A program made the position numbers and the translations under genes. 24,000 nt of DNA from Thiogranum longum (GTDB lineage Bacteria; Pseudomonadota; Gammaproteobacteria; DSM-19610). Below, piece by piece: positions 14,610-16,354 of this stretch (the stretch's first letter is position 1; each line of letters starts with the position of its first letter). The notes under the pieces are model-generated. The model was not told the DNA's origin. It saw nothing but the letters and a program-made list of their open reading frames with translations, and searched no databases. Location: positions 733,227 to 757,226 of the forward strand of contig NZ_SMFX01000001.1 in assembly GCF_004339085.1 (NCBI RefSeq). The letters run 5' to 3'.

Positions 14610-15143
14610 TCAGGCCGTTTTTCGCCGTACGGAAGCGATCAGTCCGATCAGGCCCGAGCCAAAAAGCCATACGCTGGCAGGCAGGGGTACGGCACTGGTT
14701 GTATGCGGAGGAACATCGAGAGAGAAATCATCGTCGTGGTTTTTATTGTGCTCTCTCGCAAATATACTGAACCCGTGTTTCCCGGGTGTTGCGTCAACAA
14801 TAAAACCGTCTTTATTCCTGAGGTGGTCCAGGAGGTGGCTTGAGATGTTGTGTTTGTCAGTTGCAAATTCGATTTTCCGCCCGGATAGTGGAGCATTCTC
14901 CCAGTCTTCAAATTTCTCCTGCGAGAGGCCTGGATGTTCAATTCCGAAGGTTTTGTTGAAGTGTGGGTTTTGGATGTGGCGCAAGGCGTGATGCCGGGCA
15001 TGATCGTGATGCTGGCGGCCGTAATTACCTTTGTCCTGGTGCAGCAAGTCGCTATTTTCACTGGAATCAATACTCACTAACGAGGCATTGACCGGCGTTG
15101 CGACAAGGCAGAACAGCGGCAGTATCCAGTAGTGCTTTTGCAT
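14610..15143 (-). CDS. His-rich secreted protein with a PEP-CTERM-class (VPLPA-type) C-terminal sorting signal.
   Basis: GGAGGA lies upstream of ATG 15143. The signal peptide is MQKHYWILPLFCLVATPVNA. I count 17 His in 177 aa, including GRQHHDHARHHALRH. The C-terminus VPLPASVWLFGSGLIGLIASVRRKTA is a motif plus TM helix plus basic cluster. Confidence 0.75.
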   Translation of the reverse strand: MQKHYWILPLFCLVATPVNASLVSIDSSENSDLLHQDKGNYGRQHHDHARHHALRHIQNPHFNKTFGIEHPGLSQEKFEDWENAPLSGRKIEFATDKHNISSHLLDHLRNKDGFIVDATPGKHGFSIFAREHNKNHDDDFSLDVPPHTTSAVPLPASVWLFGSGLIGLIASVRRKTA

Positions 15144-15164
15144 AATATCCTCCGTGGTGCTTTG

Positions 15165-15377
15165 TTATTTCGCCAGTGCGGGCGTGGGCGGTAAGGTGTT
15201 ATCGGATGATGCAGCCCCGGTCTTTAATGCTTCCGGGCTTGTCGCCAGCATATTTTTCAGGGAGTTGAAACTGGTGAAGGGACGCTGTATTTCCTGTTCA
15301 ACTGACTCAAGTACGCCATTGATCTGGTCAGGATCGGTGCTGTCCCGGCGGTAGATGCGCACAATATAGTTTTCCAT
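15165..15377 (-). CDS. Hypothetical 70-aa cytoplasmic protein.
   Basis: GAGGGA lies 5 nt upstream of ATG 15377. The protein reads MENYIVRIYRRDSTDPDQINGVLESVEQEIQRPFTSFNSLKNML..., then a low-complexity tail. It ends 21 nt before the next gene's ATG, so the two are probably co-transcribed. Confidence 0.6.
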   Translation of the reverse strand: MENYIVRIYRRDSTDPDQINGVLESVEQEIQRPFTSFNSLKNMLATSPEALKTGAASSDNTLPPTPALAK

Positions 15378-15424
15378 CCGGTTCCCTCTTTTGTGTTCTG
15401 TTGTGCGCAGTGTGGGGGATGCGA

Positions 15425-15442
15425 ACTTACAGAAGACTTACA
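15425..15442 (-). promoter_or_regulatory. Two perfect heptamer direct repeats in 11-bp register; a candidate SARP operator overlapping a promoter.
   Basis: ACTTACA occurs at 15425-15431 and 15436-15442 (TGTAAGT on the minus strand). The repeats lie about 48-65 nt upstream of ATG 15377 and about 50-65 nt downstream of the SARP gene stop. Confidence 0.4.
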
Positions 15443-15490
15443 AAACGGGTAAGCGGAGAACTTATTTGCTGGAAGGCCTTGCCGGGCTGT

Positions 15491-16354
15491 TCAGGAGGCG
15501 GTGGGACGTGACTTCAATGACTGGTAGAGGTTGAAAGTAACCGGGGAGGGTTGAATGTGGAGCTGTTCCGCAAGCTGTTTCCGGCACTGGTGAAAGGTGT
15601 TGATGGCCTCAGAAAATCTGCCGGAGTCGCGGTAACAAATAATAAGCTGTTGATACAGGGCTTCACCCAGGGGTTCAACTTCCAGCCCCTTCTGGTACAG
15701 GCGGATAGCCTGACCCCATTCCCGGCGAGCTTCCCATACCTTCCCGGAATCCAGGATAAATCTCAGTAGCTTGCTGCGCAGGCGTTCACGAAGTGAAAGC
15801 ATCCAGGGGCGTACCGCTTCGCGTTCCAGAAAAGCGCCCTGGTAGAGATTCAGGAGGCGTTCACTGGAACGCGATAACTGGCGTAGAATGGCGGGGTCTC
15901 TGGCGCGTACGAGCAGGCGTTCATTGAAGTTGACTGTGCGTTCAAATGCCCAGACATCGACCCATGCCATCTGGCTGCTAAGCGTCAGTTTGCAGTCGTG
16001 CAACATGAACAGATTTTTGATACCAAAAATGTGGCGCAGGCGATGGAGTGTGACATCGAAAGTGTTCTGGGCCTGGTCGCCATCGGCATCCGGCCAGAGT
16101 GCGGCAGCAAGCGTTTCACGATGCACATCACGCCCGCCAAAAGCGATCAGTGCCTGTAAAAGTTCGAAAGGCTTCTGCTGGCGAAGTTGTGTCAGTGCAA
16201 TGGGGTAGTGATGAGTTTGCACAGAAAAACGCCCCAGCGCATGAATACGCACCGGTGTTTCACCGCGCTTACCGGTCGGCTCCCGGCTCCAGCTACTAAC
16301 CGGGTGCTGCTGGTAGAGCCGTTGTATGGTACGGCTTTCCAGATTGATGCCCAT
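15491..16354 (-). CDS. SARP-type regulator (OmpR-like winged helix plus BTAD domain).
   Basis: The winged-helix part is VRIHALGRFSV...KPFELLQALIAFGGRDVHRETLAAALWPDADGDQAQNTFDVTLHRLRHIFG. The BTAD/TPR-like part is VDVWAFERTV...LYQGAFLE...ALYQQLIICYRDSGRFSEAINTFHQCRKQLAEQLHIQPSPVTFNLYQSL. Length is 287 aa. Confidence 0.85.
   Translation of the reverse strand: MGINLESRTIQRLYQQHPVSSWSREPTGKRGETPVRIHALGRFSVQTHHYPIALTQLRQQKPFELLQALIAFGGRDVHRETLAAALWPDADGDQAQNTFDVTLHRLRHIFGIKNLFMLHDCKLTLSSQMAWVDVWAFERTVNFNERLLVRARDPAILRQLSRSSERLLNLYQGAFLEREAVRPWMLSLRERLRSKLLRFILDSGKVWEARREWGQAIRLYQKGLEVEPLGEALYQQLIICYRDSGRFSEAINTFHQCRKQLAEQLHIQPSPVTFNLYQSLKSRPTAS

Follow-up and report, generated by a model that had tools for sequence, protein, structure and literature searches.

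SARP regulators are usually treated as a speciality of actinomycetes that is bound to antibiotic gene clusters. A review of 2024 calls them exclusive to actinobacteria and describes their classical DNA sites, which have an 11-bp period and overlap the -35 position (PMC10972967). In Streptomyces coelicolor, two 11-nt direct repeats mediate the activation of the neighbouring small gene afsS by AfsR, and AfsS acts on other targets by still unexplained means (PMC10972967). GSU1771 of Geobacter sulfurreducens is a SARP-type regulator of biofilm and cell-surface components (PMC10599522). PEP-CTERM genes of Proteobacteria are controlled by PrsK, PrsR and sigma-54 (Haft et al. 2006, PMC1569441), and ZepA of Anabaena is a zinc-handling secreted PEP-CTERM exoprotein under Zur control (PMC10957091). 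No paper found in the literature connects the control of PEP-CTERM genes with SARP or BTAD regulators. SARP/BTAD and PEP-CTERM terms co-occur only in the studies of GSU1771, there in the title of a cited reference.

The window, which is the whole 24-kb stretch of Thiogranum longum DNA that was analysed, holds three co-directional genes on the minus strand (Table 1), coding for a stand-alone SARP, a 70-aa protein and a His-rich PEP-CTERM protein, here called the cargo. The list of open reading frames places all three where the preliminary description had put them, and the finer elements that it had named were found as well: a 21-nt gap between the small gene and the cargo gene, which holds the ribosome-binding site of the latter, good ribosome-binding sites before both genes, a terminator, and an operator-like repeat region, which is a real site present once in the window. 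The neighbouring genes code for PEP carboxylase, an MBL-fold hydrolase, tadA, RuBisCO genes and others, and by their annotation the window is indeed free of exosortase, transporter and biosynthetic genes, as had been stated. An Rfam scan of the locus returned just two sub-threshold chance matches.

Table 1. Positions of the genes and of the sequence elements of the locus in the Thiogranum longum window.
Feature	Coordinates	Strand	Observation
Stand-alone SARP regulator gene, 287 aa	15491..16354	-	Trans_reg_C and BTAD above cut-off
SARP box TGTAAGT-CTTC-TGTAAGT	15425..15442	-	Heptamers 15442-15436 and 15431-15425; single site in window
-10-like hexamer CACACT	15409..15414	-	Spacing conserved across loci
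Transcription start (predicted)	near 15402	-	
Ribosome-binding site GAGGG, small gene	15384..15388	-	GGAG-type sites at the same place in related loci
70-aa cytoplasmic protein gene	15165..15377	-	Conserved homologues, purifying selection, predicted fold
Ribosome-binding site GGAGG, cargo gene	15149..15153	-	Inside the 21-nt intercistronic gap
Cargo gene, 177 aa	14610..15143	-	PEP-CTERM and VPLPA-CTERM above cut-off
Signal peptide of cargo	15143-15084	-	
His-rich tract of cargo	15014-14961	-	
VPLPA-CTERM signal of cargo	14693-14613	-	
Strong intrinsic terminator closing the operon	14566..14592	-	11-bp stem, 8 G-C pairs, T-run

The SARP matches the Pfam model Trans_reg_C at residues 60-110 with 27.6 bits (cut-off 26.2), which indicates an OmpR-type winged helix, and the BTAD model at residues 132-280 with 72 bits (E 8.5e-20), covering the full-length model. 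The winged helix spans approximately residues 36-115 and its recognition helix is TFDVTLHRLR. A profile built from the SARP and its relatives is colinear with the SARP domain of AfsR (8hvr, E 4.5e-7), pairing positions 70-286 with AfsR 71-282, and it also matches EmbR. The protein thus shows in silico the structural marks of the family, a winged helix with BTAD directly after it and a predicted target site with an 11-bp period. The usual description of SARPs, with an actinobacterial host and secondary metabolism, does not apply to it, as the host is a gammaproteobacterium and biosynthetic genes are absent from the window; this limit belongs to the way the family is described and is no structural criterion. 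ActII-ORF4, RedD and DnrI are the most similar in build, being also proteins of about 280 aa with a winged helix and BTAD that use heptameric direct repeats with an 11-bp period over the -35, beside the genes they regulate (PMC10972967). They differ in their heptamer, which is TCGAGxx-like instead of TGTAAGT, in their target, which is a biosynthetic cluster and not an operon of a small protein and a surface protein, and in their host, which here is gammaproteobacterial. GSU1771 shares with the present regulator its occurrence outside actinomycetes and a tie, predicted for the latter, to cell-surface components, but it has an N-terminal receiver domain, and neither a paired small protein nor a TGTAAGT box is reported there. 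By Pfam, the SARP of the window lacks a sensor domain of its own. In related loci the SARP exists in two forms, either stand-alone or as the C-terminal end of a STAND ATPase of about 1,000 aa, in which the ATPase and TPR repeats are N-terminal.

The two heptamers of the box are direct repeats separated by a 4-nt spacer, which gives a period of 11 nt, and the box occupies the -35 position. Of 90 loci, 37 have the exact form TGTAAG-N5-TGTAAG, and with few exceptions it lies 43-100 nt ahead of the small open reading frame. Other loci have variant boxes altered in both copies (TGTTACC, TGTAGTC, CGTGAGT, TGTAGGT and GGTTAGC), and each variant is paired with its own recognition-helix sequence, so that the heptamer covaries with the helix of the SARP. 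A hexamer that has A as its second and T as its sixth letter begins exactly 11 nt past the second heptamer (10-nt spacer) in 45 of 52 loci, and at the neighbouring offsets in only 0-3 of the 52; these loci also show an excess of TG at the extended -10 position. This geometry of box and -10 agrees with the classical 11-bp SARP sites (PMC10972967). Neither a sigma-70 consensus promoter at the operon nor a sigma-54 -24/-12 site was found, the latter being sought as TGGCAC-N5-TTGC-like matches with up to 3 mismatches on the minus strand at 15140-15500. Since the box is conserved, stands at a fixed distance from the -10 and covaries with the recognition helix, comparison of the loci makes it almost certain that the SARP is dedicated to activating the pair of genes downstream. 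The small protein was rejected as the factor that recognises the box in place of the SARP, because its core does not change from locus to locus, whereas the box follows the SARP helix. In at least six loci that carry the box (L007, L016, L022, L024, L028 and L042), a SARP directly upstream is missing.

Among 76 assessable loci with the small gene, a SARP gene, an orthologue or paralogue of that in the window, is directly upstream on the same strand in 58, and a SARP is present anywhere within the locus in 65; of the 18 without a SARP directly upstream, 7 have one elsewhere in the stretch and in 11 none was found. The SARP-linked loci span Gammaproteobacteria, Burkholderiales, Nitrospirota, Desulfobacterota and others. 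In an all-against-all clustering of the open reading frames of the loci, SARP is by far the most recurrent family (71 loci), while any cargo-type family reaches at most 18 loci and a flanking housekeeping gene 12; reading frames under 70 aa were left out of this clustering, and many small-protein genes are therefore uncounted in it. In Gammaproteobacteria the slot downstream of the small gene is almost always taken by a VP(L/V)PA-CTERM protein, and in other phyla by a large lipoprotein or adhesin-like protein without PEP-CTERM. Unrelated passenger domains fill this slot even in close relatives, and the cargo genes reach about 1,900 codons. The preliminary description had asked whether homologues of the 70-aa protein keep company with SARP and PEP-CTERM genes: with SARP they do in most loci, and with PEP-CTERM genes they almost always do in Gammaproteobacteria but not in other phyla. 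Of the 37 longer gaps that separate the small gene from the cargo gene in related loci, only 2 contain a terminator-like hairpin, and this rarity, the short gap with its ribosome-binding site and the terminator after the cargo gene argue for a single operon.

In close relatives the whole neighbourhood is syntenic, including PEP carboxylase, the MBL hydrolase and tadA, and part of the conservation is therefore due to vertical inheritance. This synteny is what could be said for a spurious or unrelated small reading frame in a merely inherited gene order, a reading that the comparative data already contradict and to which we give next to no chance: SARP, box and small gene stand together in unrelated genomic contexts in several phyla, and the small gene is under strong purifying selection, has a confident predicted fold and belongs to a family of at least 855 clusters. 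Dozens of unrelated contigs share this gene order and this repeat, and by these comparisons the arrangement is far beyond chance. The gene order is clearly kept in other genomes, and the three genes make up a module that is real and conserved and, as had been proposed, undescribed; as the loci compared here indicate, its conserved core is SARP, box and 70-aa protein, and the cargo is its variable part.

The small protein has a conserved N-terminal domain of 45 residues, with the pattern MENYIVRIYRRDxxDPxxvxGvxExVE...F...eLxxiL, which is followed by a variable, disordered tail. It has 25 close relatives, and the clusters of the whole family, which is unannotated, come from Gammaproteobacteria, Nitrospirota, Desulfobacterota and others. 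Long repetitive proteins, P0026 and P0027 among them, were set aside as spurious in the representative search because they matched just the low-complexity tail of the query. The gene has a dN/dS of 0.1-0.2, with third codon positions varying most, and AlphaFold2 predicts a beta-beta-beta-alpha fold with a pLDDT above 90 at residues 1-45; judged from this selection and this model, the small protein is real and folded. It was taken from the start for a cytoplasmic protein of unknown family, which agrees with the absence of any hydrophobic segment and of any Pfam, NCBIfam, PHROG, PADLOC or PDB relative; 76 family members scanned singly also gave no Pfam or NCBIfam match, and a literature search with the peptide motif VRIYRR returned no papers. 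With neither a structural nor a sequence relative, the fold gives no functional lead. The core is near-invariant across phyla, whereas the cargo and the DNA box vary, and there are three independent fusions of the small protein to PilZ. A leader or arrest peptide was rejected because conservation lies in a folded N-terminal part, the family is under purifying selection and fusions to PilZ occur, and a cargo-specific chaperone was rejected because the cargoes are unrelated from locus to locus.

The core of the small protein is net acidic, with a median charge of -2, and its tails range from strongly basic (net charge +3 or more in about 37% of family members) to neutral or acidic (a quarter of the tails, that of the window included), so a simple model of DNA binding or of RNA binding does not fit. 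The pattern of charges singles out no protein partner either. A nucleic acid-binding protein of CsrA-like size, which would act as RNA chaperone, anti-terminator or translational regulator on the mRNA of its own operon and so enable the expression of long or difficult surface-protein genes, would agree with the invariant R-x-Y-R-R motif on the first beta-strand, with the basic tails and with the position of the small gene, always the first cistron before cargo genes that can be very long. This role is nevertheless unlikely, as the core is acidic and many tails are not basic, the protein has no similarity to CsrA, Hfq, cold-shock or other RNA-binding folds, no conserved RNA element was found between the small and cargo genes and terminators there are rare, and PilZ fusions are more typical of protein-protein effectors.

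Comparison of the sequences supports the three genes, the geometry of box and -10, the covariation of box and helix, the operon structure, the linkage across phyla and the variability of the cargo. On balance we favour a self-contained cassette, made of a SARP-activated promoter, an operon whose first product would be a generic cytoplasmic regulatory partner, and an exchangeable cargo. In this cassette, two SARP protomers would bind the two TGTAAGT heptamers in tandem, the heptamers would stand in for the -35 element, and the SARP would recruit RNA polymerase to the weak -10 CACACT. This would switch on a bicistronic mRNA ending at the intrinsic terminator, of which the first cistron would give the small cytoplasmic protein with its beta3-alpha domain, the conserved partner of such SARPs across a number of Gram-negative phyla, and the second the exchangeable cargo, here secreted and His-rich with a VPLPA-type PEP-CTERM signal. 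A regulatory role of the small protein is suggested by its invariant core beside a varying cargo and box, by the PilZ fusions and by the precedent of AfsR and afsS. It is a fair conjecture, somewhat short of probable, that the small protein works as a general adaptor in regulation, in analogy to AfsS, which is made under AfsR control. It could act through a highly conserved partner in the cell, be it the SARP, RNA polymerase or a different regulator, and would then either exert feedback on the switch or link the expression of the cargo to other behaviour; the PilZ-fused versions of some lineages may add a c-di-GMP input.

AfsS is a repeat-containing, largely unstructured protein, and set against this description the small protein, a folded and conserved beta3-alpha domain of another family, is unlikely to be its homologue. 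The likeness lies in the arrangement: in both systems a gene of about 60-70 aa adjoins the SARP gene and is activated by it, here by prediction, and a box of two direct 11-nt repeats, likewise predicted here, lies at the -35 position. The large regulators of the module also combine, as AfsR does, a SARP domain with a STAND-type ATPase and TPR repeats, but in reversed domain order, with the SARP domain C-terminal. The hosts here are Gram-negative, the operon runs on into a surface-protein gene and no AfsK-type kinase input is evident.

A feedback of another kind would arise if the small protein were a ligand or partner with its variable C-terminal tail read by a TPR-like part of its own regulator, which would be BTAD in the stand-alone SARP and the MalT-like sensor in the STAND-SARPs, giving a possibly bistable switch that would be formally like the RRNPP-type TPR regulators with their adjacent pro-peptide genes, minus export. 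The regulator always has TPR-like repeats, the small gene adjoins it under its predicted control, the stand-alone SARPs are without a sensor domain, and between the window and locus L001 the tail has 6 non-synonymous and 1 synonymous differences against 1 and 2 in the core, which is consistent with a constant core and a fast-evolving tail. This sample is tiny, however, and relaxed constraint on a disordered tail explains it equally well; conservation sits in the folded N-terminal domain and not in the tail, and the protein has no signal peptide or processing site, so that reading of the tail is quite improbable.

A bolder version of the cassette is an ancient switch of undescribed kind, found across phyla and made of two components, the SARP and the YIVRIYRR-motif protein, of which the latter would be the obligatory partner or ligand of the SARP, or of RNA polymerase at SARP promoters; this version is tentative and rather doubtful. 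If true, it would mean feedback, possibly bistable, control of interchangeable surface-protein cassettes, with c-di-GMP wired straight into the switch by the PilZ-fused versions, and AfsR/AfsS would then exemplify a design of much wider occurrence. The cassette as such already describes a coherent SARP system outside actinomycetes, in Gammaproteobacteria, Nitrospirota, Desulfobacterota and other phyla, which is tied to one unannotated small-protein family before swappable surface-protein genes and appears to offer a readable DNA-recognition code of recognition helix versus heptamer. It defines a new protein family, with at least 855 clusters, for whose function the genomic context offers a strong clue, and it points to a possibly general logic behind the so far unexplained action of AfsR through AfsS. 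Thiogranum longum is cultured, and the predictions are therefore directly testable.

A 'putative secreted protein' of Thiogranum longum has 100% identity to the cargo, which belongs to a family of six members. Inspection of the sequence shows a signal-peptide-like N-terminus ending in VNA, MQKHYWILPLFCLVATPVNA, which is followed by SLV, and a C-terminus, VPLPASVWLFGSGLIGLIASVRRKTA, composed of a Pro-rich motif, a hydrophobic helix and a basic cluster. It matches Pfam PEP-CTERM (PF07589) with 23.2 bits (cut-off 20.7) and, at the borderline, TIGR03370 VPLPA-CTERM with 25.4 bits (cut-off 25.35), and the VPLPA-type sorting signal is invariant in all six cargo homologues. The mature protein is Asp-rich and has 16 His among 129 residues (12%), and its earlier classification as a secreted His-rich protein of the PEP-CTERM class is borne out. 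No exosortase (EpsH/Xrt) was found within the window or in the flanks of related loci, and the cargo is presumably processed by one encoded elsewhere. The AlphaFold2 model of the cargo, based on an alignment of six sequences, is uninformative (pLDDT 36).

The preliminary description had proposed a dedicated activator for a surface protein that possibly binds metal; in a fuller form of this proposal, the 70-aa protein would be a helper specific to the cargo, such as an export chaperone or a metallochaperone. The first half of the proposal stands, as box, -10 and covariation point to an activator of the gene pair, but a metal-binding protein does not hold as the centre of the module: the cargo is variable, other genomes have this small protein in front of unrelated cargoes whose sorting signals differ, among them lipoproteins and adhesin-like proteins, and the His tract is not conserved, being absent from 3-4 of the 5 closest cargo homologues. 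There is no metal-handling gene or Fur/Zur-type regulator at the locus and no Cys or His cluster in the small protein. The His and Asp content of the cargo, the tight coupling of the small and cargo genes and the known zinc-binding PEP-CTERM exoprotein ZepA (PMC10957091) speak for the proposal, which as a whole is very improbable. ZepA is likewise a secreted PEP-CTERM protein, has histidines near its mature N-terminus and binds metal; it has a conserved, confidently modelled fold, unlike the cargo, with its low-confidence model, small family and unconserved His tract.

For PEP-CTERM proteins, the cassette would represent a second regulatory route besides PrsR/sigma-54. Both routes, the present one by prediction, pair a dedicated activator with a conserved DNA motif upstream of PEP-CTERM protein genes. 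In the present operon, however, the activator is a SARP and not an NtrC-type enhancer-binding protein, the upstream region is without the -24/-12 motif of sigma-54, and the PEP-CTERM gene comes second, after a small cistron, instead of forming a single-gene operon.

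The 70-aa protein encoded between the SARP gene and the secreted surface-protein (cargo) gene is a real, widespread family. It was previously described as being of unknown family, and neither it nor any of 76 diverse members matches a Pfam or NCBIfam model. A word-indexed search found 25 close relatives, of 67-71 aa except P0025 (a 100-aa chimeric ORF), exhaustive searching of 1.84 billion representatives with HMMER gave 136 matches, nearly all of 55-100 aa, and a profile search gave 855 clusters. The best 120 of these 855 are, where named, nearly all "hypothetical protein", and none of the 120 has a Pfam domain. 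Residues 1-45 are conserved (MENYIVRIYRRDxxDPxxvxGvxExVE......F...eLxxiL), with R7, Y9, R10, G21, E24, F34, and L40 essentially invariant, and are followed by a tail variable in length, sequence, and charge. AlphaFold2 predicts three β-strands and a helix with pLDDT >90 for residues 1-45, then a disordered tail; no relative turned up in the PDB, either by Foldseek or by a profile search of its sequences. In codon-level comparison the gene has a dN/dS of 0.1-0.2, and most variation falls at the third codon position. Between the window and L001, a homologous locus (GCA_966191015.1), the 45-codon core has one non-synonymous and two synonymous changes, and tail codons 46-70 (15302-15165) have six and one, which may reflect relaxed constraint or diversifying selection, the sample being too small to separate them. 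In P0025, from an ENA metagenome contig, the first 28 residues are joined straight to the VPLPA-CTERM tail of the cargo, either through a natural deletion that brought the two genes together or as an assembly artefact.

Coordinates of the module, its counterparts in other loci, and neighboring genes (window positions unless a locus is named)
Feature	Coordinates	Strand	Remarks
SARP gene	16354..15491	minus	287 aa; Pfam Trans_reg_C, BTAD
SARP box	15442-15425	minus	TGTAAGT-CTTC-TGTAAGT; sole such site in window
-10-like hexamer	15414-15409	minus	CACACT; fixed spacing from second heptamer
Small-protein gene	15377..15165	minus	70 aa
Cargo gene	15143..14610	minus	177 aa; signal-peptide-like N-terminus; PEP-CTERM, VPLPA-CTERM models
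Strong terminator	14592-14566	minus	downstream of cargo gene
LysR-type regulator	10887..11777		divergent
Form I RuBisCO large subunit	10671..9190		
Form I RuBisCO small subunit	9169..8735		
CbbX-like AAA ATPase	8620..7679		
DsrC-like protein	7271..6900		
Large STAND-SARP regulators	L029:2603-5839, L041:2220-5444, L033:2358-5720, L055:2475-5675, L044:2515-5769		upstream of small gene
PilZ fusions	L058:1081-1518, L082:5998-6516, L084:1403-1945		45-residue domain plus C-terminal PilZ

The three co-directional ORFs are present exactly as first described, and they are syntenic in other genomes: contigs with close homologues share the window order of PEP carboxylase, SARP, small gene, secreted protein, MBL hydrolase, and tadA. 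On its own, this shared order in close relatives could be vertical inheritance; on other contigs the small gene is found in different surroundings. A scan of one genome per species confirmed 142 sites, and the best 80 of the 142 were from Thiohalobacter, Thiogranum, Woeseiaceae, Acidiferrobacterales, Burkholderiales, Nitrospirota, Nitrospinota, Desulfobacterota, Binatia, and others. By SARP HMM, 58 of 76 assessable loci have a SARP-like ORF immediately upstream in the same orientation, and 65 have one anywhere in the locus. All-against-all clustering, restricted to ORFs of at least 70 aa and therefore missing many small-protein genes, gave SARP as by far the most widely recurrent family (71 loci), with the small protein in 32 loci, cargo families in at most 18, and flanking housekeeping genes in at most 12. 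Several genomes hold two or three small-gene copies, each with its own SARP.

Along the window and L001, identity is 0.75-0.9 across PEP carboxylase and the greater part of the SARP gene. It climbs to 0.95-1.00 at the SARP gene 3' end and stays there over the promoter, small gene, and first half of the cargo gene (15680-14880), and then drops. Synonymous divergence is 0.05-0.11 inside this tract versus 0.36-0.38 in its flanks, a sign of either recent recombination in the tract or nucleotide-level constraint.

The SARP ORF scores 27.6 bits with Trans_reg_C (OmpR-type winged helix) and 72 bits with BTAD, both passing Pfam thresholds. A profile of the window protein and 14 relatives aligns at positions 70-286 with the AfsR SARP domain, residues 71-282 (8hvr, E 4.5e-7), and EmbR aligned too, so the window regulator is a genuine though divergent small SARP. 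It has the structure that defines a SARP, together with a SARP-type site, and falls outside the usual taxonomic and functional range of the family. A stand-alone SARP of 280-320 aa is often found in Gammaproteobacteria loci. Outside this class the SARP is the C-terminal end of proteins of ~1,000-1,120 aa, which have a STAND-type AAA domain at the N-terminus, then MalT-like TPR repeats, and the winged helix and BTAD at the C-terminus. AfsR is built from these parts too (ATPase, TPR, SARP), but in the reverse domain order. The TPR-like part of the regulator might have the small protein as its ligand, which we consider improbable.

The operator-like repeat noted earlier between the SARP and small genes is real, and its form TGTAAG-N5-TGTAAG is exact in 37 of 90 loci, Nitrospirota and Desulfobacterota included, nearly always starting 43-100 nt before the small ORF; about 0.1 matches are expected by chance (estimated for 12 fixed bases and ~1.6 Mb searched). 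Variant boxes are altered in both copies, the two heptamers of a box both reading TGTTACC, TGTAGTC, CGTGAGT, TGTAGGT, or GGTTAGC. Each variant pairs with a distinct recognition-helix sequence in the winged helix, for example TGTAAGT with xFD(V/T)TLHRLR, CGTGAGT with SFEMAVHRLR, TGTTACC with SFKMTLSRLR, TGTAGTC with AFSVNLVRLR or ALSVNIIRLR, and GGTTAGC with ALNVALHRLR. This covariation is the strongest argument that the box is read by the adjacent SARP and not by the small protein. The small protein was rejected as box reader, since its core does not change along with the box.

A hexamer of the pattern nAnnnT begins exactly 11 nt past the second heptamer; this holds for 45 of 52 loci (neighboring offsets, 0-3 of 52), and TG is enriched at the extended -10 position. 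The window operon promoter has no -35 consensus and no sigma-54 site. SARP-dependent promoters have heptameric direct repeats with an 11-bp period that overlap the -35 region, and the afsS promoter has two 11-nt direct repeats (PMC10972967); the architecture in the module is the same. In L009, whose contig is shared with L013, three more TGTAAG-N5-TGTAAG sites, two of them overlapping in tandem, are found at L009:4241-4380 (the contig that also has L013:3354-3493), upstream of a second SARP paralogue that itself precedes a unit of SARP, small gene, and two cargo genes. This arrangement suggests a SARP cascade or autoregulation.

The 21-nt gap between the small and cargo genes and their good ribosome-binding sites, GGAG-type before each, were borne out. 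In 14 of 51 loci, no more than 30 nt separate the small gene from the start of the next gene, and a terminator-like hairpin occurs in just 2 of 37 longer gaps; the short gaps and rare hairpins support co-transcription of the small gene and cargo. The cargo is the variable element of the module. About 30 of 35 Gammaproteobacteria loci encode a protein with a signal peptide and, at its end, a VP(V/L)PA-type PEP-CTERM signal, with passenger domains mutually unrelated even at one syntenic position in close relatives. In Nitrospirota, Desulfobacterota, and others, the slot is filled by lipoprotein-like or secreted proteins as long as ~1,900 aa with FN3, NHL, RCC1, PKD, Ig-like, or beta-propeller domains. 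A role of the small protein as a cargo-specific helper is very unlikely beside such diversity. Some Nitrospirota and Desulfobacterota loci (L027, L043, L049, L051, L077) have an extra gene for a secreted or outer-membrane-like protein (400-800 aa) between the SARP and small genes, so the module can hold several surface-protein genes.

The window cargo is 100% identical to a Thiogranum longum protein. Its mature part is 12% His, its C-terminus VPLPASVWLFGSGLIGLIASVRRKTA passes the PEP-CTERM model and only narrowly the VPLPA-CTERM model, and its AlphaFold2 model is uninformative. No exosortase is present in the 24-kb window, as was noted. The family has only six members, and the His-rich tract HHDHARHHALRH is found in two and replaced in the rest. 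The preliminary description was right in proposing a compact, undescribed SARP-controlled module but misjudged which parts matter, since a module built around a metal-binding protein does not agree with a variable cargo. The window cargo may still bind metal, and ZepA is a precedent among PEP-CTERM proteins (PMC10957091).

The nearest likeness for a SARP gene paired with an adjacent small-protein gene is AfsR/afsS, although AfsS and the small protein probably belong to different families. Known control of proteobacterial PEP-CTERM genes involves PrsK, PrsR, and sigma-54, typically on single-gene operons (PMC1569441), a scheme inapplicable to the window operon. A Gram-negative precedent for a SARP-type regulator acting on surface and biofilm functions is GSU1771 of Geobacter, although this protein carries a receiver domain (PMC10599522). 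In the open-access literature, no paper was found that ties SARP or BTAD regulators to PEP-CTERM gene control or contains the small-protein motif. The module follows a known design, in which a SARP-activated promoter has a small-protein gene beside it; what is new is the protein family and the link with surface-protein cassettes.

The small protein is cytoplasmic and folded, and differs very little between phyla, whereas cargo and box vary; therefore, its partner must be conserved. The SARP-driven operon always has it as first product. In one Nitrospiria and two Thermodesulfobacteriota loci it is fused to PilZ (PF07238, E 1e-7 to 6e-6), with a STAND-SARP and a variant SARP box still preceding the fused gene. 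PilZ domains are c-di-GMP receptors and normally control an effector to which they are attached or bound. The best-fitting reading, a tentative one, is that of a generic regulatory adaptor produced once the SARP is active. Nucleic-acid binding is an unlikely reading: the RxYRR strand is invariant and many tails are basic, but the core is net acidic. As an adaptor, the small protein could feed back on the SARP or RNA polymerase, or relay the signal to other genes. Similar coupling is known from fimbrial-operon regulators such as MrpJ and PapX, which link adhesin expression to motility. Downstream of AfsR, AfsS relays the signal to other genes by a mechanism that is still open (PMC10972967).

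Elsewhere in the window the gene content suits a sulfur-oxidising autotroph, with form I RuBisCO, a CbbX-like ATPase, a DsrC-like protein, PEP carboxylase, and glycogen synthase; an autotrophy cluster occupies 6900-11777.
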